Positions 3,713 to 41,612 of a stretch of DNA of 64,000 bases are shown piece after piece. The notes beneath the pieces are model-generated. The model searched no databases and was not told the origin of the DNA. It saw nothing but the letters and a program-made list of their open reading frames with translations. A program made the translations under genes and the position numbers. The DNA comes from an uncultured Gammaproteobacteria bacterium (GTDB taxonomy: Bacteria > Pseudomonadota > Gammaproteobacteria > Natronospirales > REEB76): the NCBI GenBank assembly GCA_964584665.1, contig CAZPAO010000005.1, positions 23,022 through 87,021 on the forward strand, written 5' to 3'. Position 1 is the stretch's first letter. Every line of letters starts with the position of its first letter.

Positions 3713-5257
3713 ATGAAATCTGCACAGATCCTCGGCACGCTGGTGCTGGGCCTGATGGCGAGCCTGCCGGCCCTGGCGGACGATGCCAAGCCTGCCGCGC
3801 CTGCCGCGGCCACCACGGACCAGCAATCCGCCACACAGGGCTCGGTCACGGTGGGCGGCAAGAGCATCGCCTACACCGCCAATGCCGGCACCCTGGTACT
3901 GAAGAACGACAAGGGCGAGCCCACCGCGAGCATGTCCTACGTGGCCTACCTCGCCAACGGCGCTTCCGCCACCAGCCGCCCCGTCATGTTCATCTACAAC
4001 GGCGGCCCCGGCTCCTCCACCATCTGGCTGCACATGGCCTCCTTCGGCCCGAAGCGCGCGCTGCTCGGCGATGCCAAGCACACCGCACCCGCGGCCTATC
4101 AGCTGGTTAACAACGAATACAGCCTGCTGGACGCCACTGACCTCGTGTTCGTGGACGCGGTGGGCACCGGCTTCGGCCGCGTGCTGGACAAGGACGCGGG
4201 CGGCAAGGGCGAGGCCAAGGACTTCTACGGCGTGGACCAGGACGGCCGTGCCTTCACCCAGTTCATCGAGCGCTTCCTGACCAAGTACAGCCGCTGGAAC
4301 AGCCCGAAGTATCTCTTCGGCGAGAGCTACGGCACGCCGCGCTCGGCAGTGGTGGCGAACGACCTCGTCAACGATTCTGTGGACCTGAACGGCGTGATCC
4401 TGCTGTCGGCCATCCTCAACTTCGACCTCAACGCCGACTTCCCGCAGATCAACCCGGGCGTGGACCTGCCCTACGCCGTGAACCTGCCGACCCTGGCGGC
4501 GAGCGCCTGGTACCACAAGAAAGCCGGCACCAGCTTCAGCGATCTCCCCACCTACCTGCATGAGGTGGAGCAGTTCGCGATGGGTGATTACCTGTCGGCC
4601 CTGAACCAGGGTTCCGAACTTTCCGCCGACAAGAAGCGCGAGATCGCCCAGAAGATGTCCGGCTACATCGGCCTGCCGGTGGATTACCTGATGAAGGCCA
4701 ACCTGCGCGTCGCCGGGCCGCATTTCGAGCAGCAGCTGCTGCAGGACAGCGACGAGACCACCGGACGTTTCGACACCCGCTATGCCGGTCCGGCCCTGGA
4801 TCCGCTGGGTGAGTTCGCCTCCTACGATCCGCAGTCCGCGGCCATCGGCTCGCCCATCGTCTCGCTCTTCAACGACTACGAGCGCAACCAGCTCAAGTTC
4901 GGCCAGGATCTGGTCTACGTGCCGGTGAGCGGCGACGTGGGCAACAACTGGGACTTCAAGCACGCCCAGCCCGGCGCGCCGCCGCTGCCCTTCGGCGTGA
5001 ACGTGATGCCGGACCTGGCCGCCGCCATGACCCAGAACCCGGACATGAAGGTGATGCTGAACGCGGGTTACTACGACCTGGCGACGCCCTACTACTCGGC
5101 GGTGTACGTGATGCACCACCTGCCGATGGCGCAGGCGTTGCAGAAGAACATCTCCTACGGCTTCTATCCGGCCGGTCACATGGTGTACGTGAACCTGGAC
5201 AGCCTGAAGATGCTGCACGACAACGTGGCCAAGTTCATCGGTTCCAGCCACAAGTGA
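3713..5257 (+). CDS. Secreted S10 family serine carboxypeptidase-like protein
   Basis: Signal peptide, then FIYNGGPGSSTIWLHMASFGP and the nucleophile motif GESYG(TPRS), which are S10 signatures. Confidence 0.8.
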   Translation: MKSAQILGTLVLGLMASLPALADDAKPAAPAAATTDQQSATQGSVTVGGKSIAYTANAGTLVLKNDKGEPTASMSYVAYLANGASATSRPVMFIYNGGPGSSTIWLHMASFGPKRALLGDAKHTAPAAYQLVNNEYSLLDATDLVFVDAVGTGFGRVLDKDAGGKGEAKDFYGVDQDGRAFTQFIERFLTKYSRWNSPKYLFGESYGTPRSAVVANDLVNDSVDLNGVILLSAILNFDLNADFPQINPGVDLPYAVNLPTLAASAWYHKKAGTSFSDLPTYLHEVEQFAMGDYLSALNQGSELSADKKREIAQKMSGYIGLPVDYLMKANLRVAGPHFEQQLLQDSDETTGRFDTRYAGPALDPLGEFASYDPQSAAIGSPIVSLFNDYERNQLKFGQDLVYVPVSGDVGNNWDFKHAQPGAPPLPFGVNVMPDLAAAMTQNPDMKVMLNAGYYDLATPYYSAVYVMHHLPMAQALQKNISYGFYPAGHMVYVNLDSLKMLHDNVAKFIGSSHK

Positions 5258-33603: not shown

Positions 33604-35655
33604 ATGAAGCGATTCGCATTCCTGTTGGCGGTGGTGCTGCCCTTGGCAGTCCACGCGGACGACGGCACCGAGCTAGGGACGGTGACGGTCACGGACAGCC
33701 GCGCGCCGGTGCCGCTCGGCATGCTGGCGGACAACACCACACGCGTGGACGCGCAGAGCCTGACGCTGCTGTCCGAGACGCATCCGGCCCAGATATTCAG
33801 CCTCATCCCGGGAGCCTGGGTGACGGCGGGCGGCGGCCAGGAGAGCCTGATGGGCCTGCGCTCTCCGCTCTTCACCGGGCAAGGCGCCTGCGGCGCATTC
33901 CTGCTGCTGGAAGACGGCATACCCATCCAGCCGGCGGGGTTCTGCAACGTCAACGCGCTGTTCGAACTCAACACCGAGCAGGCGGCGGCGGTGGAGGTGA
34001 TCCGCGGTCCGGGCTCCGTGCTCTACGGCGGCGACGCGCTGCACGGCATCGTCAACGTGCTGACCCGCGCGCCGGACAGCCTGCCTGCCGACAGCGTAAG
34101 CGTGGAACTCGGCAGCCACCGCTATACCCGCGTCGAGACCAGCGTCGGCGACTGGGACGGTACCGCAGGCTGGCGCATGAGCGCCAACGCCGCCCACGAC
34201 GGCGGGTTCCGTGCGGACTCCGGCTTCGACCAGCAGAAACTGGACCTGCGCTACGACAAGAGCGAAGGCCCGGCGACCGCCGAGACCTTGCTGGCGTTCA
34301 CCAATCTGAACCAGGACACCGCCGGATACATATTCGGCCAGAATGCCTACCAGGATGAGTCCTTGAGCGATGGGAACCTCACTCCCGGCGCCTACCGGGA
34401 CGCCCGCAGCTGGCTGCTGGCGCAGCGCTGGGAGTTCCTGTTCGGCGATAACCGCGAGATGGACTTCACGCCCTATGTGCGCCGCAACACCCAGGCCTTC
34501 GTGCAGCATTTCCTGCCCGGCGAACCGGTGGAGGACGATGCGCAGGACAGCGTGGGATGGCAATTCGCCTGGCGTGACCGGCCCGGCATCGATACCCAGG
34601 CGATCTACGGCCTCGACGGCGAGTACGTGCACGGCACCTTGCTCGAATTCCAGCCGGATCCCCTCGCCAGCAACCCGAGCCGCCAACAGGGCCTGCACTA
34701 CGACTATGCGGCGGACAGCCGCACCCTCGCCGCCTACGCAGACTTCAACCATGCCTTCACGCCGCGTTGGATCCTGGACGGTGGTCTACGCGTGGAAGGC
34801 GTGCGCTACAGTTACGTCAACTTCCTGCCGGCGGGCGACACCCAGGCGGATGGCACGCCCTGCGCCGGCGGTCCCTGCCTCTTCAACCGGCCCGCGGACC
34901 GCAGCGACCAGTTCATCAACCTCATGCCCAAGGCAGGCTTGAGCTGGCTCATCACCACGGCACAGACCGCTTACGTGAAGGTCGGGCGCGGAGCCCGGGC
35001 GCCGGAGGCGCCGGAACTCTATTCCCTGCAGTCGCAGCAGACCACGACGGACCTCCACTCCGAGACCCTGGACGACTATGAGTTGGGTTGGCGCGGCAGG
35101 TCAGGCGCCTTGGCCTGGGACACGGACGTCTACAGCATGCTCAAGGATCACTTCATCTTCCGCGACGCCAACGGTTTCAACGTCAGCGATGGCCGCACCC
35201 GCCACCGGGGCATCGAGTTCTCCGCCTCCTTCGCGTTCAGCCCCCAGTGGACGCTGCTGCTGGACGGCAGCTACGCCATCCACAGCTATGCATTCTCAGC
35301 CGTGCTGGCACAAGGCAACAGCATCACCTACGGGGACGACATGAAGTACGCGCCGCGCACGCTCGGCGCCGCGCGGCTGCGCTGGGAACCCGCGGCGGAG
35401 ACCACGTTGGAAGCTGAATACCAGCACGTGGGCGGCTACTGGCTGGACGAGTCCAACACTCACCGCTACGGCGGCCATGACCTCGTGAACGTATATGCGC
35501 GCCGGGGCATCGGCGGCGGCTGGGCGCTGTCCTTCCGCATCATAAACGCAGCGGATACGGCCTATGCGGAACGGGCCGACTACAGCTTCGGGAACTACCG
35601 GTATTTCCCCGGCGACAGGCGTACGTATTTTGCTGGGATAGAGAAGGCCTGGTAG
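33604..35655 (+). CDS. TonB-dependent outer-membrane receptor
   Basis: Signal peptide and a TonB-box-like LGTVTVTD. The plug is IRGPGSVLYGGDALHGIVNVLT. A beta-barrel follows, ending in a C-terminal aromatic residue (...GIEKAW). Confidence 0.85.
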   Translation: MKRFAFLLAVVLPLAVHADDGTELGTVTVTDSRAPVPLGMLADNTTRVDAQSLTLLSETHPAQIFSLIPGAWVTAGGGQESLMGLRSPLFTGQGACGAFLLLEDGIPIQPAGFCNVNALFELNTEQAAAVEVIRGPGSVLYGGDALHGIVNVLTRAPDSLPADSVSVELGSHRYTRVETSVGDWDGTAGWRMSANAAHDGGFRADSGFDQQKLDLRYDKSEGPATAETLLAFTNLNQDTAGYIFGQNAYQDESLSDGNLTPGAYRDARSWLLAQRWEFLFGDNREMDFTPYVRRNTQAFVQHFLPGEPVEDDAQDSVGWQFAWRDRPGIDTQAIYGLDGEYVHGTLLEFQPDPLASNPSRQQGLHYDYAADSRTLAAYADFNHAFTPRWILDGGLRVEGVRYSYVNFLPAGDTQADGTPCAGGPCLFNRPADRSDQFINLMPKAGLSWLITTAQTAYVKVGRGARAPEAPELYSLQSQQTTTDLHSETLDDYELGWRGRSGALAWDTDVYSMLKDHFIFRDANGFNVSDGRTRHRGIEFSASFAFSPQWTLLLDGSYAIHSYAFSAVLAQGNSITYGDDMKYAPRTLGAARLRWEPAAETTLEAEYQHVGGYWLDESNTHRYGGHDLVNVYARRGIGGGWALSFRIINAADTAYAERADYSFGNYRYFPGDRRTYFAGIEKAW

Positions 35656-35660
35656 AAATG

Positions 35661-35684
35661 AGAAGGGGCCTTGCGGCCCCTTCT
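35661..35684. terminator. Hairpin terminator between the convergent TonB-receptor and dsbA genes
   Basis: AGAAGGGGCC-TTGC-GGCCCCTTCT. Confidence 0.6.
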
Positions 35685-35705
35685 TGCATCACATGATCTG
35701 AAGAC

Positions 35706-36365
35706 TTACTTGTGCTTGCCGCCGCTGGCCGGGGCCTGTTCCCGGGCCACCAGGAACTGCACGCACTTCATGATGTCGGCCGGGGCCATCTGGTAGCCGG
35801 CGCCGGTCTTCCACTTGCCGTTGATGATGATGGTGGGCACGCCCTGTACCTGGTAGCGCTCGCCCAGCTGCTGGGCCTGGGCCAGGCGCGACTGCACGCC
35901 GAATGAGTTCCAGGTGGAATCGAAGTCGGCCGGTTTCACGCCGAACTTCCCGAAGAAGCTGCGGATCGCGTCCTTGTCGCTGCGCAGCTCACCCTGGTTG
36001 TCCAGGTGGATGGCGTTGAAGAAAGGCTCGCGGATCTTCTCGCCGACGCCGAGGATGTCGGCGGTGATGGTGGCCTGGGCGTCCACGTAGAACTCGGAAT
36101 CCTTCATGGCGGCGGGGACGCGCTTGAACACCACGCTGGCGGGCTTGTTCTTCTCCCACACCTCGACGTAGGGCTCGAGGGCGAAGCAGTGCGGGCAGCC
36201 GTACCAGTAGAACTCGATGACCTCCACCTGGCCGGGCTTCACATCCGTGGCCTGGGCCGGGTTCACGGCTTCGTAGTTCACGCCTTCCGTGAAGCTGGTC
36301 ATGTCGGCCGAGGCCGCAGCGGAGAGCAGCATCAGGACGGGTATCAGCAGCCAGCGCATCTTCAT
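35706..36365 (-). CDS. dsbA: Thiol:disulfide interchange protein DsbA
   Basis: Signal peptide and the active site FYWYGCPHCF, with a thioredoxin fold. Confidence 0.9.
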   Translation of the reverse strand: MKMRWLLIPVLMLLSAAASADMTSFTEGVNYEAVNPAQATDVKPGQVEVIEFYWYGCPHCFALEPYVEVWEKNKPASVVFKRVPAAMKDSEFYVDAQATITADILGVGEKIREPFFNAIHLDNQGELRSDKDAIRSFFGKFGVKPADFDSTWNSFGVQSRLAQAQQLGERYQVQGVPTIIINGKWKTGAGYQMAPADIMKCVQFLVAREQAPASGGKHK

Positions 36366-36387
36366 TGGGATACCTCTGTGTATACGT

Positions 36388-37044
36388 TTACTTGGCGGCG
36401 GCCGGCATGGCTGCCTGCTCTTGGACGACGAGCTGGTTCACCACCAGCATGATCTGGGAATAGGGCACGCCGAAGTCGCCGCCGGTGATCCATTTGCCGT
36501 TCACCACCAGGGTCGGCACGCCGAACAGCATCAGGCCGTAGCGCTCCGCCAGCACGTTGGCCTGGGCGATCTTGGCATCCACGGTGGGAGAGCTCCAGAT
36601 GCTCTCGAACTTCCTTGGGTCCACGCCGAACTGCTTCACATAGAAGCGCTCGAAATCCGCCTCGCTCTGCATCACGTCGTGGTTCTGGTGGATCTCGTCG
36701 AAGGTCGCCTTGTGGGACTTCTCGAGTATGCCGAGCGCCTCGGCGGTGTAGTAGGCGCGGGCCGCCGGTTCCCACTCCGGCTGCAGGATCGCCGGCACGC
36801 GTTTCAGCACCACGTTGGCGGGCTTGCTGCGCTCCCAGGCCTCGAGGTAGGGCTCGAGGGCGTTGCAGTGCGGGCAGCCGTACCAGAAGAAGTCCAACAC
36901 CTCGACCTGGCCGGGGTTGGTGGAGACGGGCTGGGTGGGCAGCACCGCCTGATAGTTCACGCCGAGCTTATAGGCCGCGTCCGCGGACGCGGTGGCGCTC
37001 GAAGCCAGCAGCAGCAGGGATGCCAGGAAGCTGAAGAGTCTCAT
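36388..37044 (-). CDS. dsbA: Thiol:disulfide interchange protein DsbA (tandem paralogue)
   Basis: MRLFSFLASLLLLASSATASA signal and the active site FFWYGCPHCN. Confidence 0.85.
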   Translation of the reverse strand: MRLFSFLASLLLLASSATASADAAYKLGVNYQAVLPTQPVSTNPGQVEVLDFFWYGCPHCNALEPYLEAWERSKPANVVLKRVPAILQPEWEPAARAYYTAEALGILEKSHKATFDEIHQNHDVMQSEADFERFYVKQFGVDPRKFESIWSSPTVDAKIAQANVLAERYGLMLFGVPTLVVNGKWITGGDFGVPYSQIMLVVNQLVVQEQAAMPAAAK

Positions 37045-37100
37045 GCCGACCTCGTGGGACTGGGGGGTAGTAACGCGCGAGGCCGTGGCCCGGTGCACCG

Positions 37101-37727
37101 TCAGGGCTGGGGCTTGGCGGCGTGCAGGCCCTCGATGTAGCTCCCCACCGCCTGCATCTCGGCCGGGCTCAGGCGCGAGGCGATGGTCTCCATCATCTTA
37201 TTCGGGTCGGTGGTGCGGGTGCCGGCGGCGTAGTTCTGCAGCTGCGTCACCACGTAGGCGGAATGCTGGCCGCTCAGGGACGGCACCTTCATGGAGAAGT
37301 TGCCGGAACCATCGGGGCTGTGGCAGGCCGCGCAGGCCGGCACGTTCTCGGCCTTGTTGCCGTTGCGGTAGAGCTGCTCACCCTGCTTCACCTGGCCGGC
37401 CTCCGCCTCGCCCACCTGGAGGGTCTGGCTGGAGAAGTAGGCGGCGAGGTCCTGGATGTCCTGATCGGAGAGGCCCTTGGCCTGACCCGACATGATGGCG
37501 TTCTCGCGCTTGCCGGACTTGAAGTTGTTGAGCTGCGCCTGGATGTAGCTCGCGTTCTGGCCGGCGAGCTTGGGGAACTGGGCGCCGGTGCTGTTGCCGT
37601 CCGCGCCGTGGCAGGCGCCGCAGACCGCGGCCTTGCCCTTGCCGGCGGCGGCATCGCCATCGGCCTGGACTTGCAGGGCGGCGCCGGCGGCAGCCAGGAC
37701 CAGGGCGATCGTCAGGAACTTCTTCAT
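37101..37727 (-). CDS. Dihaem cytochrome c4
   Basis: Signal peptide MKKFLTIALVLAAAGAALQVQA and two CxxCH sites (CGACH, CAACH). Confidence 0.9.
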   Translation of the reverse strand: MKKFLTIALVLAAAGAALQVQADGDAAAGKGKAAVCGACHGADGNSTGAQFPKLAGQNASYIQAQLNNFKSGKRENAIMSGQAKGLSDQDIQDLAAYFSSQTLQVGEAEAGQVKQGEQLYRNGNKAENVPACAACHSPDGSGNFSMKVPSLSGQHSAYVVTQLQNYAAGTRTTDPNKMMETIASRLSPAEMQAVGSYIEGLHAAKPQP

Positions 37728-37861
37728 GGGCACAGCTCCTTGGGGCTGTCGGGGCATGGGGTCCTGCGGGTCGAGGCCCGGAAAATACCGGCTGCAAGCG
37801 TCCCGCGGGTGAGCCCTGGATTTTACACTAGGGGCCGACACCCCCTCCACCCAAGGCCCCC

Positions 37862-38467
37862 ATGCGCCTCGATTTCCGCAACATGCGCTTCCTCACCAGC
37901 GGCGCCGCTTTGAGCGGCCTGCCCGCGGACACGGGGCGGGAGGTGGCCTTCGCCGGGCGTTCCAACGCCGGCAAATCCAGCGCCCTGAACGCCATCACCG
38001 GGGTCTCGGGCCTGGCGCGGGTCAGCAAGACCCCCGGCCGGACCCGGCTCCTGAACCTCTTCGGCATGGACGGCGACCTGCGTTTCATGGACCTGCCGGG
38101 CTATGGCTACGCCAAGGTGCCGGAGGCGGAACGTCTGAAGTGGGGCCAGTTGGTGGAGAGTTATCTCAGCGCCCGGCAGAGCCTTGCCGGCCTCATCCTG
38201 GTGATGGACATCCGCCATCCCCTCATGGACTTCGATCGCCAGCTACTGGGGTTCGCCGGTCCGCTGGAACTGCCGGTGCACGTCTTGCTCTCGAAGGCCG
38301 ACAAGCTCGGTCGCGGCGCCGCCATGAAGACCTTGGCCGAGACCCAGAAAGGCCTCAGGGGTTGGGGCACGGCCCAGCTCTTCTCCGCCCATTCTGGCCA
38401 GGGCGTGGAAGAGGCGCAGAAGCTCCTGGCCGAATGGCTGACGGGACCGGACGAAAGAGAAAAATAA
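37862..38467 (+). CDS. engB: Ribosome biogenesis GTPase YihA/YsxC
   Basis: GRSNAGKSSALN (G1), DLPGYGYA (G3) and LSKADK (G4). Confidence 0.9.
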   Translation: MRLDFRNMRFLTSGAALSGLPADTGREVAFAGRSNAGKSSALNAITGVSGLARVSKTPGRTRLLNLFGMDGDLRFMDLPGYGYAKVPEAERLKWGQLVESYLSARQSLAGLILVMDIRHPLMDFDRQLLGFAGPLELPVHVLLSKADKLGRGAAMKTLAETQKGLRGWGTAQLFSAHSGQGVEEAQKLLAEWLTGPDEREK

Positions 38468-38502
38468 CCCCGGCGCCAAAAGGGGGAAAACGCCGGGGTT
38501 AT
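38453..38502 (-). terminator. Strong rho-independent terminator oriented for minus-strand transcription (polA and/or an intergenic sRNA)
   Basis: 12-bp stem ATAACCCCGGCG / CGCCGGGGTTAT (38464-38502). On the minus strand it is followed by TTTTTCTCTTT (38463-38453). On the plus strand there is no U-tract. The stem overlaps the engB stop codon. Confidence 0.6.
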
Positions 38503-38670
38503 AAGAGCTACACCCGGCTTGGGGAGACCGGCTGTAGGGTTCCGCCCATGGGAGACGGGCGGGGTGAACACCATTGCGGTGTTCATAGAGTAAGACCCGC
38601 GAGACGGCTTTTTCGTTCCATCTAAACAACAAAAATTTTGTATCCCCTTGTAACAGCTGAGGGGTACCAT
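38453..38670 (-). ncRNA. Candidate sRNA in the engB-polA spacer; strand and ends uncertain
   Basis: Consecutive hairpins lie at 38508-38537, 38542-38562, 38566-38584 and 38640-38667, plus the terminator hairpin. On the minus strand, three loops read UCUCCCCAAG, GUCUCCCAU and UUUUCCCCCUUUUGG. A weak sigma70-like promoter is present on the minus strand (TTAATC, 16 nt, CATAAT at 38701-38674). Confidence 0.3.
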
Positions 38671-38769
38671 CTGATTATGAGTTAATTATCCGGTTGATTA
38701 ATTAATGCACACAGGATATCCACAAGCCAGAATGGCCGGAATTTGAGCATTTTCGTTGAGGCTAGGTGT

Positions 38770-38845
38770 CACAGAAGCGTGACGAGCGAAGGTAGAGAGC
38801 GAGCCGGACTGCAACGAAGCTATGCCGAGCGCAGTAGCTTCTGTG
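38770..38845. repeat. Copy B (internally deleted, 76 bp) of the structured intergenic repeat; termini CACAGAAGC...GCTTCTGTG
   Basis: It shares the 5' block AGAAGCGTGACGAGCGAAG and the 3' block CGAGCGCAGTAGCTTCT with copies A and C. It ends 5 nt before the polA stop codon. Confidence 0.55.
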
Positions 38846-38849
38846 ATGC

Positions 38850-41612
38850 CTAGTGAGCTTCCTGCCAGTTGGAGCCTGTCCCCACATCCACTACGAGCGG
38901 CACTTTGAGCTTGGCCGCCGCTTCCATGATGCGCGGCACTTCCTTCTGGATGAGCGGCAGTGCGCCCTGCTCCACCTCGAACACCAGCTCGTCGTGCACC
39001 TGCATGACCATGCGGGCCTTGGCGCCGCTCTCCTTGAGCCAGCGCTGCACCTCGATCATGGCGCGCTTGATGATGTCGGCGGCGGTGCCCTGCATGGGCG
39101 CGTTCACCGCGGCGCGCTCGGCGTACTGGCGCACCTGCTGGTTCTTGGACTTGATGTCCGGGAGATAGAGGCGCCGGCCGAACACCGTCTCCACGTAGCC
39201 CTGCTCACGCGCCTGCAGCCGCGTCTCATCCATGAACTGCTTCACGCCCGGATAACGCTTGAAGTAGAGGTCCACGTAGTCCTGCGCCTCGCCGCGGCCG
39301 ATGCCGAGCTGCTTGGCGAGGCCGAAGGCCGACATGCCGTAGATGAGCCCGAAGTTGATGGCCTTGGCGGCGCGGCGGCGTTCGTCACTCACGGCATCAG
39401 GTTTCAGGTCGAACACTTCCGCCGCGGTGGCTCGGTGGATGTCCATGCCCTCGGCGAAGGCCTTGAGCAGGCCGGCGTCGCCCGAGAGGTGCGCCATGAT
39501 GCGCAGCTCGATCTGGGAGTAGTCGGCGGCCAGCAATATCTGGCCCTTGGGCGCGATGAAGGCCTGGCGGATGCGCCGGCCCTCCTCGGTGCGCACCGGG
39601 ATGTTCTGCAGGTTGGGATCCGTGGAAGAAAGCCGGCCCGTGGCTGCCACCGCCTGATGATAGGAGGTGTGCACGCGTCCGGTCTTGGGGTTCACCTGTT
39701 CCGGCAGCCGGTCGGTGTAGGTGGATTTCAGCTTGTTGAGGCCGCGGTACTCCAGGATCACCCGCGGCAGCTCGTACTCATCCGCCAACTCCTCCAGCAC
39801 GTCTTCCGCGGTGGAAGGCTGGCCGCTGGCGGTCTTGCGCACCACCGGGATCTCCATCTTCTCGAACAGGATGGCCTGCAGCTGCTTGGGCGAATCCAGG
39901 TTGAAGGGTCCGCCCGCCAGGGTCTGCGCCTTCTCCTGCAGCGTGGCGAGCTTCTTCGTGATCTCGTCGCTCTGCACTTTCAACATGGCTATGTCTATCA
40001 ATACGCCCGAGTGCTCCATCTCCAGCAGCACCGGCACCAGCGGCATCTCGATCTCGTCGAACACCTTCTTGAGCGCGGGGACCGCGCGCAGCCGCGGCCA
40101 GATGGCCTGGTGCAGGCGCAGGGTCACGTCCGCGTCCTCCGCCGCGTACTTGGCCGCGTCCTCGATGCGTACCTCATCGAAGCCGATCTGCTTCGCGCCC
40201 TTGCCCGCCACGTCCTCGTAATGGATGGTCTTGTAGTCGAGGTACTTCTCAGCCAGCGAATCCATGTCGTGGCGGCTCGCCACGCTGTCCAGCACGTAGG
40301 ACTCCAGCATGGAGTCGTAGCGCATGCCGGCGAGGGCGATGCCGTGGTTGGCGAGCACATGGGCGTCGTACTTGATGTGGTGCCCGAGTTTCTGCTTCTT
40401 CGGGTCTTCCAGGATGGGTTTGAGGCGCTTCAGCACCGCGTCCCGGTCGAGCTGCGGGGGCGCATCGGGGTAGCGGTGCGCCAGGGGCACGTAGGCCGCT
40501 TCGCCGGACTTCACCGCGAAGGACACGCCCACGATCTCGGCCTTCATGTAGTCGAGGCTGGTGGTCTCGGTGTCGAAGGCGATGAGTTCGGCGGCTTCCA
40601 GCTTCGCCACCCAGGCGTCCAGATCTTTCTGCTCCAGCACCGCCGTGTATTCACCGGCTCGCTGCGGCGCGGGAGCGGGCTTCACCGCCGGCACCGCCAC
40701 GTCGGCCTTGCGGTGTGGCTCCTCGCCGCCCTCGTCCAGGGCCTTCAGCCAGCTCTTGAAGCCGAAGCGGGTGTACAGCTCCCGCAGCCGCTCCTGGTCC
40801 GGCGCGCGCATGGCGAGATCCGTGGGGCCAAGCGGCAACTCCACGTCGCAGTGGATGGTGGCGAGCTTGCGCGAGAGGAAGGCCGCATCCTTGTGCTGCG
40901 CCAGTTTCGGCGCGAGCTGCTTGGCACCGCGCATCGGCACCGCGGCCACCTCATCGAGGCGCGCATACAGCGCTTCGAGGGTGCCGAAGTGGGCGAGCAG
41001 CGGAGCGGCGGTCTTGGGGCCGACGCCCGGCACGCCGGGGATGTTGTCGGAGCTGTCGCCCACCAGCGCCAGGTAGTCGATGATCTGCTCGGGCCAGACA
41101 TCGAACTTCTCCTTCACGCCGTCCCGGTCGAGCGTGGTGTCGGTCATGGTGTTGATGAGCGTGATGTCGTCGCCGTCGCCCACGAGCTGCGCCATGTCCT
41201 TGTCGCCGGTCGAGATGAGCACCTTCAGGCCCTGCTCGACGCCGCGCTTGGCCAGCGTGCCGATCACATCGTCCGCTTCGACGCCTTTGACCTTCAGCAT
41301 GGGGAAGCCGAGCGCTTCCACCAGTTCGTTGAGCGGTTCCACCTGCGCACGCAGGTCGTCCGGCATGGGCGGGCGGTTGGCCTTGTATTCCTCGAACAGG
41401 TCGTCGCGGAAGGTCTTGCCGCTGGCGTCGAACACCACCGCCACGTGCTCGGGTGCGTGGTCCACCAGCATGCGTTTAAGCATGTTGGCCACGCCGTATA
41501 TGGCGCCCGTCGGTTCGCCGGAAGGGGAGGTGAAGGGCGGCAGCGCGTAGAAGGCGCGGTAGAGGTAAGACGAGCCGTCCACCAGCACCAATGGGAACTT
41601 GCCCTTGCTCAC
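38850..41612 (-). CDS. polA: DNA polymerase I
   Basis: 920 aa with a GTG start. It has a 5'-3' exonuclease domain (LVLVDGSSYLYRAFYA), a 3'-5' exonuclease domain (FDTETTSLD) and a polymerase domain (DYSQIELRIMAHLS, QVHDELVFE). Confidence 0.97.
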   Translation of the reverse strand: MSKGKFPLVLVDGSSYLYRAFYALPPFTSPSGEPTGAIYGVANMLKRMLVDHAPEHVAVVFDASGKTFRDDLFEEYKANRPPMPDDLRAQVEPLNELVEALGFPMLKVKGVEADDVIGTLAKRGVEQGLKVLISTGDKDMAQLVGDGDDITLINTMTDTTLDRDGVKEKFDVWPEQIIDYLALVGDSSDNIPGVPGVGPKTAAPLLAHFGTLEALYARLDEVAAVPMRGAKQLAPKLAQHKDAAFLSRKLATIHCDVELPLGPTDLAMRAPDQERLRELYTRFGFKSWLKALDEGGEEPHRKADVAVPAVKPAPAPQRAGEYTAVLEQKDLDAWVAKLEAAELIAFDTETTSLDYMKAEIVGVSFAVKSGEAAYVPLAHRYPDAPPQLDRDAVLKRLKPILEDPKKQKLGHHIKYDAHVLANHGIALAGMRYDSMLESYVLDSVASRHDMDSLAEKYLDYKTIHYEDVAGKGAKQIGFDEVRIEDAAKYAAEDADVTLRLHQAIWPRLRAVPALKKVFDEIEMPLVPVLLEMEHSGVLIDIAMLKVQSDEITKKLATLQEKAQTLAGGPFNLDSPKQLQAILFEKMEIPVVRKTASGQPSTAEDVLEELADEYELPRVILEYRGLNKLKSTYTDRLPEQVNPKTGRVHTSYHQAVAATGRLSSTDPNLQNIPVRTEEGRRIRQAFIAPKGQILLAADYSQIELRIMAHLSGDAGLLKAFAEGMDIHRATAAEVFDLKPDAVSDERRRAAKAINFGLIYGMSAFGLAKQLGIGRGEAQDYVDLYFKRYPGVKQFMDETRLQAREQGYVETVFGRRLYLPDIKSKNQQVRQYAERAAVNAPMQGTAADIIKRAMIEVQRWLKESGAKARMVMQVHDELVFEVEQGALPLIQKEVPRIMEAAAKLKVPLVVDVGTGSNWQEAH

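Follow-up and report, generated by a model that had tools for sequence, protein, structure and literature searches.

The spacer between engB and polA in the 64,000-nt stretch of DNA analyzed here (the window), from an uncultured soil gammaproteobacterium, probably encodes an independently transcribed, trans-acting small RNA (sRNA) of ~125 nt on the minus strand that belongs, as a divergent member, to the anti-hemB/ncS04 family (Rfam RF02837). Comparison with homologous loci indicates that the predicted promoter, four hairpins and terminator of this sRNA form a self-contained module that is conserved with abundant compensatory changes, in agreement with the core claim of an earlier reading of this DNA (the original prediction) that an independent sRNA gene lies here on the polA strand. 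The two flanking genes, engB (yihA/ysxC; 37862-38467, plus strand; TIGR03598 at 208 bits, cut-off 124) and polA (38850-41612, minus strand; Pfam DNA_pol_A at 556 bits and both exonuclease domains), are convergent and are separated by 382 bp (38468-38849), such that polA is upstream of and co-directional with the predicted sRNA and engB is convergent with it. The spacer has the GC-rich half followed by an AT-rich half described originally, with the G+C fraction dropping from ~0.60 (38450-38600) to 0.39-0.42 (38600-38750).

Structure, conservation and strand of the predicted RNA

The predicted sRNA gene occupies 38458..38585 of the minus strand, with its 5' end at 38585 +/- 3 and its 3' end within the U-tract. 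The minus strand from 38580 to 38455 folds at -56.1 kcal/mol (z = -5.68), and none of 200 shuffled sequences folded as well. The fold consists of four hairpins (stem-loops SL0 to SL3) with three C-rich loops, (G)UCUCCCAU, UCUCCCCAAG and UUUUCCCCCUUUUGG. The C-rich loops read on this strand as first described and the three stem-loops that carry them are present, but the 5'-proximal SL0 had been overlooked. SL0 (38565-38585, minus strand; GAACACC-GCAA-UGGUGUUC) has 8-nt arms that are 100% complementary, and its third pair shows a compensatory exchange of G-C for A-U (seven versus six sequences in A2, 16 versus nine in A4). SL1 (38542-38562, minus strand), with the loop (G)UCUCCCAU, has double changes at all seven of its pairs among 30 homologues; in most relatives its loop is ACCUCCCUG, which includes CCUCC, the core of the 16S anti-Shine-Dalgarno sequence. 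SL2 (38508-38537, minus strand) bears the most conserved loop of the family, CUCCCCAAG in the window, and UCCCCAAG was found at this loop in 18 of the 30 homologues. The linkers between the hairpins are at most 12 nt long and are not U-rich. A conserved small open reading frame (ORF) within the sRNA was ruled out, since the AUG of the SL0 loop varies (GCAAUGG, GCAACGG, GCAAUAG, CUCGUGG).

The last hairpin, SL3 (38464-38502, minus strand; loop UUUUCCCCCUUUUGG), is a predicted intrinsic terminator with a 12-bp stem, of which 10 of 12 pairs have double changes. As the original prediction stated, the stem is followed by a U-run: its 12-nt arms (38464-38475 and 38491-38502) are 100% complementary, and UUUUCUCUUU comes next on the minus strand. 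The U-tract UUUUUCUCUUU (38453-38463, minus strand) corresponds to a T-run that is present after the hairpin in every homologue, and on this strand alone. The SL3 stem includes the stop codon of engB (38465-38467), and the template of the U-tract is the A-rich end of engB, GAA AGA GAA AAA TAA (E R E K stop; 38453-38467), indicating that engB and the sRNA share their 3' ends.

A homologue search with EngB as bait gave 80 genome loci, the nearest of which come from metagenome-assembled genomes (MAGs) of uncultured soil Gammaproteobacteria. Positions 38460-38584 are conserved in 12 loci whose EngB identity ranges from 80% to 60%, while the flanks diverge, and the onset of conservation coincides exactly with SL0. 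RNAalifold returned the same four-hairpin consensus for 13 close homologues, with five compensatory pairs. A covariance model built from the clade of the window had a single match in the window (38459-38584, 118.9 bits) and matched 35 of the 80 loci at E < 0.01, nearly always just past the engB stop and convergent with it; these matches include Acidithiobacillus/Igneacidithiobacillus, Nitrosomonas, Thiodiazotropha, Sulfuriflexus and one betaproteobacterial MAG. In the 30 best matches, 95.4% of cells are paired, compared with 36-51% when the partners are slid by one to three columns, and 31 of the 34 base pairs have changes on both sides, although the alignment behind this last count was fitted to the model, which favors structure.

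The loops are better conserved than the stems (loop 1, CCUCCCUG; loop 2, UCCCCAAG; loop 3, UCCCCCUU), with UCUCCCAUG replacing the family's CCUCCCUG in the window and in two of its relatives, L002 and L003. Moreover, 114 G-U cells in the 30 homologues become A-C mismatches when read on the plus strand, where pairing is 85.2%. This asymmetry and the conservation of the loops indicate that the minus strand is the RNA strand. The original prediction had left room for a plus-strand alternative with CsrA/RsmA-type GGA motifs in the loops. In this alternative, the plus strand would function as the engB 3' untranslated region (UTR) or as a separate RNA, with GGA/GGGAG loops that titrate CsrA/RsmA. 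GGA-containing loops are indeed present, the plus strand of the same region also folds (z = -2.28), and Weinberg et al. 2007 noted a strand ambiguity for the hemB/anti-hemB motif. Nevertheless, we consider a functional plus strand extremely unlikely, since it has the lower pairing just described and no T-run after the last hairpin, the conserved promoter points the opposite way, and the transcript of the Burkholderia cenocepacia homologue was mapped in the anti-hemB direction (PMC5688073). A plus-strand CsrA sponge was thus rejected on the G-U asymmetry, the orientation of promoter and terminator, and the fold z-scores.

Predicted promoter and upstream region

A predicted promoter of the RpoE/AlgU type, recognized by extracytoplasmic function (ECF) sigma factors, is located at 38591..38619 of the minus strand, with the -35 element GGAACGA (38619-38613), a 17-nt spacer and the -10 element TCTTA (38595-38591), which ends ~6 nt before SL0 and hence before the predicted sRNA start. 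GAACNN-N16/17-TCNNN occurs at the equivalent position in 33 of 38 genome loci, and four more have a GGAATT variant. For an independent sample, metagenomes were scanned with a pattern of loop 1 and the terminator only (CCTCCCTGAGCGGG..CCCCGG..CCGGGG), which yielded 120 loci. Among the 108 with enough upstream sequence, the motif was present in 93 (GAACTT 54 times; TCTTA/TCTCA/TCTGA 48 times), and the strict form GAACNN-N16/17-TCNNA was found in 89 (82%) compared with 42 of 21068 background windows (0.2%). The published AlgU/RpoE consensus is GAACTT-N16/17-TCtgA, and the algD promoter reads GAACTA-N16-TCttA (PMC10651043). Elsewhere in the window, loose matches to a sigma-E-type motif amount to a handful, none of them informative. 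From its position and recurrence, the sRNA promoter is most likely the ECF sigma-E/AlgU-type sequence GGAACGA-N17-TCTTA at 38619-38591. The position of this promoter and the onset of conservation together delimit a predicted sRNA of ~125 nt (38585 to ~38458) that leaves the AT-rich half outside.

The alternative that the GAAC...TC motif is recognized by another ECF sigma factor, or does not act as a promoter, in which case the RNA would stand outside the envelope-stress response, appears unlikely. An AAC -35 element is common to many ECF groups, the -35 of the window is off consensus, ncS04 (the family member studied in B. cenocepacia) shows no response to SDS, and one subgroup of loci uses a sigma-70-like promoter. 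Against this, the full GAACTT-N16/17-TCTTA/TCTCA/TCTGA motif is the RpoE/AlgU consensus and is kept across classes, and ErsA, the Pseudomonas sRNA found in the same slot, depends on sigma-22. The subgroup consists of loci with the same SL1/terminator pattern and no engB downstream (L084, L118, L127, L148, L165 and L180), with TTGAAT-N17-TAAATT in place of the ECF motif. Its sole member scanned with Rfam, L084, is above the anti-hemB cut-off and adjoins hemB; the subgroup could represent a promoter replacement or a paralogue.

Within the AT-rich half, the original prediction had proposed a weak TTAATC-N16-CATAAT promoter. These hexamers exist at 38701-38674, but their role as a sigma-70 promoter was rejected: the -35 matches at only three of six positions, no sigma-70-like site was reported by a consensus scan of 38000-39200, and the element lies ~90 nt upstream of where sRNA conservation starts, inside a conserved palindrome. 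This palindrome, TAATTAATCA-N6-TAATTAA (38682..38704, minus strand), is ~100 nt upstream of the predicted sRNA start and contains the proposed -35 hexamer. In the form TAATTAATCA-N6-TRATTAA it shows no variation among the window and L002-L007, whereas its flanks vary; it has one copy in the window and is not present in the other 195 loci. It is probably an operator for some DNA-binding protein, which may or may not regulate the sRNA. Just upstream of it is a DnaA-box-like sequence, TGTGGATAT (38714-38722, minus strand; 8/9 to TGTGGATAA), which is common to L002 and L003 and reads TGTGGGCAA in L006. Between polA and the sRNA promoter there is a single hairpin (38664-38642), which is weak (-8.9 kcal/mol, z = 0.06) and was rejected as a polA terminator.

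Genomic context and relatives of the RNA

The position of the module relative to engB is the most constant aspect of its context. Of the 96 pattern-found loci with at least 700 nt downstream, 73 have a convergent engB within 400 nt (median 34 nt), and the distance from sRNA to engB ranges from 0 to 147 nt. The upstream neighbor of the pattern loci is either a co-directional polA (24 loci) or a divergent gene for a ~340-aa HemB (5-aminolevulinate dehydratase, ALAD; 460 bits). The predicted module is thus located at the engB 3' end across the Gamma- and Betaproteobacteria and the Acidithiobacillia, with polA or hemB on the opposite side, and with the engB 3' end as its constant partner the name anti-hemB fits the betaproteobacterial arrangement only. 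In three loci the module is inverted and co-directional with engB (L016 2924-3037, plus strand; L018 3286-3407, plus strand; L105, oriented 2694-2758, stored as 4349-4413 on the minus strand), consistent with a self-contained gene. In L016 the ECF-type promoter falls within the engB 3' coding region. In the Moraxellaceae (L029, L032, L033, L035, L036 and L041), engB and polA are convergent with spacers of -3 to 12 nt that have no sRNA, suggesting that the slot was emptied in that lineage.

This context bears on two further explanations. One is that the RNA is a processed polA 3' end (a 3'UTR-derived sRNA), or that the sequence is a mere bidirectional polA/engB terminator with no regulatory role. 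No strong intrinsic terminator is found from the polA stop to the sRNA, so polA transcription could read through into the sRNA, and the first strong terminator downstream of polA is SL3, which serves engB as well. However, the same RNA and promoter motif occur at the same distance where the upstream gene is the divergent hemB, from which read-through is impossible. The enrichment of the promoter motif over background, the conservation of the loops beyond the needs of a terminator and the primary 5' end mapped for ncS04 by differential RNA sequencing (dRNA-seq) also argue for an independently transcribed sRNA, and we regard the 3'UTR or terminator explanation as very unlikely. The other is that the RNA acts as a cis-antisense regulator of a neighbor. 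The target would be engB, by way of overlapping 3' ends and convergent transcription, or hemB, since a 2026 preprint reads anti-hemB as a hemB antisense element. The overlap of the sRNA terminator and U-tract with the engB stop and last codons, the anchoring of the family at the engB 3' end and the antisense placement in the hemB upstream region of Betaproteobacteria would all fit this explanation. In the window, however, the neighbor is polA and no hemB is adjacent; across the family the spacing from engB is variable, the three loci above have the module in inverted orientation and one subgroup retains the RNA with no engB. Finally, the apical loops, which are the most conserved part, are complementary to neither neighbor. 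A cis-antisense role therefore seems distinctly improbable to us, and a trans-acting sRNA is the reading we prefer.

At Rfam gathering thresholds, nothing was found in the spacer, and the only above-threshold match in the window is a tRNA gene (23775-23848, plus strand). In E-value mode (601 nt against 4227 families), all matches in the spacer were on the minus strand and all were to C-rich-loop sRNAs: alpha-r14 (35.5 bits, cut-off 58.8), anti-hemB (RF02837; 28.5 bits, cut-off 49.5, E = 1.2e-4), 6C (27.5 bits), sX13 (RF02232; 25.3 bits, cut-off 50), alpha-r7 (22.3 and 21.0 bits in two runs), LhrC (20.5 bits) and Pseudomon-1/ErsA (RF01719; 13.4 bits, cut-off 50, a partial match to model positions 34-108). 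Spot 42 (RF00021) had no match in the spacer even at E <= 10. The Rfam scan suggested with the original prediction thus returns anti-hemB below threshold, and the gap between 28.5 bits and the 49.5-bit cut-off explains why annotation misses the sRNA. Close clade members score 40-47 bits with anti-hemB, two loci matched by the clade covariance model (L026, 84 bits; L046, 39 bits) are both above the RF02837 cut-off, and 18 of 20 pattern-derived metagenome loci pass it (50-80 bits), so that intermediates form an unbroken series up to above the cut-off. Loci above it in the polA context (L083, L090, L103 and L123) indicate that the position upstream of and antisense to hemB is not universal.

The hallmark of RF02837 is a CCUCCC-type loop followed by a CCCCGG..CCGGGG terminator and a U-run; in the window, the SL1 loop contains UCUCCC and the terminator stem is identical. 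The anti-hemB consensus in Rfam, CCCGCuUCuCCUCCCUGaGCGGG ... CCCCGgcg...cgcCGGGG-U-run, is near-identical in SL1 and the terminator to L004-L012, CCTGCTCACCTCCCTGAGCGGG ... CCCCGGYG...CRCCGGGG. Like anti-hemB, the window RNA runs toward engB and is preceded by an ECF-type promoter of the same kind, and it is similar in size to ncS04 once SL0 is counted (105 nt for ncS04, ~125 nt here). It differs in its SL1 loop (UCUCCCAU, not CCUCCCUG), a longer SL2, polA instead of hemB as the upstream neighbor, the clade-specific palindrome upstream and a host that is an uncultured gammaproteobacterium and not a member of the Burkholderiales. The anti-hemB RNA motif was described by Weinberg et al. 2007 and corresponds to ncS04 of B. 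cenocepacia J2315, an Hfq-bound RNA of 105 nt with a primary 5' end determined by dRNA-seq, a 3' end determined by rapid amplification of cDNA ends, and a Northern signal (PMC5688073). As judged from these similarities, the window sRNA is a divergent and so far unannotated representative of the anti-hemB/ncS04 family, which is known but functionally uncharacterized. The statement accompanying the original prediction that no equivalent was known to its author for this lineage is thus superseded, both by this sub-threshold relative and by sX13, to which the window RNA is an architectural twin.

sX13 of the Xanthomonadaceae lies 175 bp downstream of polA (PMC3771888) and, like the window sRNA, which starts ~265 nt past the polA stop, is on the polA strand. 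Both are about 115-125 nt in size and begin with a short 5' element, after which come three stable stem-loops in the loop order ..CCC(C).., UCCCCAAG-like and CCCCC in the terminator; the apical motifs are 4C/4C/5C in sX13 and 3C/4C/5C in the window, which has the extra 5' hairpin. Across family members, sX13 is the second-best Rfam family, at 25-31 bits over its full length and below the cut-off. In contrast to the window sRNA, its downstream neighbor is a hypothetical gene instead of engB. sX13 acts without Hfq. An nhmmer comparison of family profiles with the sX13 Rfam consensus gave 1.7 bits, which is within the range of 500 shuffles, and sX13 is therefore treated as an analogue in architecture and position whose homology is uncertain. 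The same comparison against the consensuses of alpha-r14, alpha-r7 and 6C (500 shuffles each) also provided no support for a sequence-level link, the 6.2 bits against alpha-r14 coming from the terminator only. alpha-r14 and alpha-r7 of the Alphaproteobacteria (the sX13 paper places alpha-r7 beside polA; PMC3771888), 6C of the Actinobacteria, LhrC of Listeria and the 'toxic' or double-hairpin sRNAs of the Betaproteobacteria (the ncS27 group) share with the window RNA repeated hairpins with CCUCC/CCCC loops, which are able to mask Shine-Dalgarno sequences. They belong to other hosts, and the window scores well below their cut-offs; this resemblance is most likely convergent.

The polA-engB slot itself is shared with two known sRNAs, as the original prediction stated: the E. 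coli K-12 annotation gives polA, spf (Spot 42) and a convergent yihA (engB), and ErsA is located in the polA-engB spacer (PMC8575079). ErsA has the same orientation, a size of ~130 nt and three stem-loops, making it similar to the window sRNA. It strictly requires sigma-22 and acts as a repressor of the porin OprD (PMC7565897); sigma-22 is AlgU, an RpoE homologue, and the promoter predicted here is of the same class. Unlike the window sRNA, with its C-rich loops, ErsA has a 34-nt U-rich single-stranded seed domain. The match of the ErsA model to the window is essentially the terminator alone, and the model had no above-cut-off match in 40 related loci scanned at the gathering threshold. Spot 42 of the Enterobacterales and Vibrionales has the same gene order but, unlike the window sRNA, a CRP-repressed sigma-70 promoter and seeds that are single-stranded, in place of C-rich loops. 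The best match of the clade covariance model in the E. coli polA-yihA locus (L201 3413-3508) is spf itself; at 14.3 bits this is too weak to argue homology, and with no Rfam match either, a Spot 42 identity was rejected.

Proposed function and significance

We propose that transcription would start ~6 nt past the RpoE/AlgU-type ECF promoter, so that the sRNA would be made under envelope or extracytoplasmic stress. Its C-rich loops would mimic the anti-Shine-Dalgarno sequence and pair with G-rich ribosome-binding regions of several mRNAs, lowering their translation and stability as for sX13, whose 4C loops repress mRNAs carrying 4G motifs in their ribosome-binding regions (PMC3771888). Hfq probably assists, because ncS04 binds Hfq. 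MicA, RybB and MicL are sigma-E-dependent sRNAs. By analogy with these and with ErsA, likely targets would include abundant envelope proteins.

Several points, in addition to the model-fitted alignment and the possible read-through from polA, weigh against this proposal. The RNA of the window is known here from comparison of sequences, and its host is represented by MAGs only. The -35 element of the window departs from GAACTT in reading GAACGA, and its 17-nt spacer is the longer of the two consensus lengths. Exposure of B. cenocepacia for 20 min to SDS, H2O2, NaCl, low iron or low pH did not induce ncS04 significantly, and neither did biofilm growth or stationary phase (PMC5688073), a poor fit to a simple stress-induction model. 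Gene starts in the window were scanned for complementarity to the loops with RNAduplex, in which the three loops were compared with positions -30..+15 of 35 ORFs selected on third-codon-position GC. The signal stayed within background and is uninformative: the best energy was -23.4 kcal/mol and the 1% quantile of the background was -22.3, with many candidate starts for each gene. Finally, L001, the nearest locus by EngB (91%), has no sRNA at the engB site. There, a different minus-strand ORF abuts engB (L001 3070-3700), which could reflect a rearrangement or a MAG assembly join.

The surroundings of the spacer include two other groups of features. Upstream of engB (33604-37850) are many envelope or periplasm genes, including a TonB-dependent receptor gene (33604-35655, plus strand), two genes for DsbA-like proteins (35706-36365 and 36388-37098, minus strand) and a divergent di-heme cytochrome c gene (37101-37850, minus strand). 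On the polA side, a 17-nt inverted repeat (38762-38778 and 38837-38853, 88% complementary) brackets the polA stop codon; as RNA it folds at -33 kcal/mol (z = -2.8) and has no U-run. The sequence CAGAAGCTACTGCGCTCGGCAT inside it is common to L002 and has one copy in the window, and a repetitive extragenic palindromic (REP) or miniature inverted-repeat transposable element (MITE)-like repeat was ruled out, since the element is single-copy in the window.

For the window itself, the result is a gain in annotation and not a new kind of system. For the family, anti-hemB has been an orphan motif since 2007, and ncS04 is expressed and Hfq-bound with no known regulator or target. What is new is that the family appears to extend well past the Burkholderiales, to lineages of the Gammaproteobacteria and Acidithiobacillia missed by Rfam thresholds; that the engB 3' end is its constant partner, with the other neighbor often being polA, in the slot of Spot 42, ErsA and sX13; and that an RpoE/AlgU-type promoter is nearly always present, which makes the regulation of the family directly testable in cultured carriers. 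The engB anchoring, the near-universal sigma-E-type promoter, the lineage extension and the bridge to the polA-locus sRNAs are apparently absent from the searchable literature, in which we found no described link between engB, an sRNA and RpoE or between ErsA and sX13.

More tentatively, and with considerable doubt, a sigma-E-driven sRNA gene at the engB 3' end may have been the common ancestor of anti-hemB/ncS04, the window RNA, sX13, ErsA and possibly Spot 42. If so, the locus would have been kept through the history of the Beta- and Gammaproteobacteria while the seed and, in some lineages, the promoter were replaced; the sRNA would be a central branch of the RpoE envelope-stress regulon in bacteria other than the enterics; and both the name anti-hemB and the hemB-antisense idea would be misleading. 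Independently of this ancestry, the nearly constant predicted promoter suggests that proteobacteria other than the enterics conserve an sRNA that depends on sigma-E and carries anti-Shine-Dalgarno loops.

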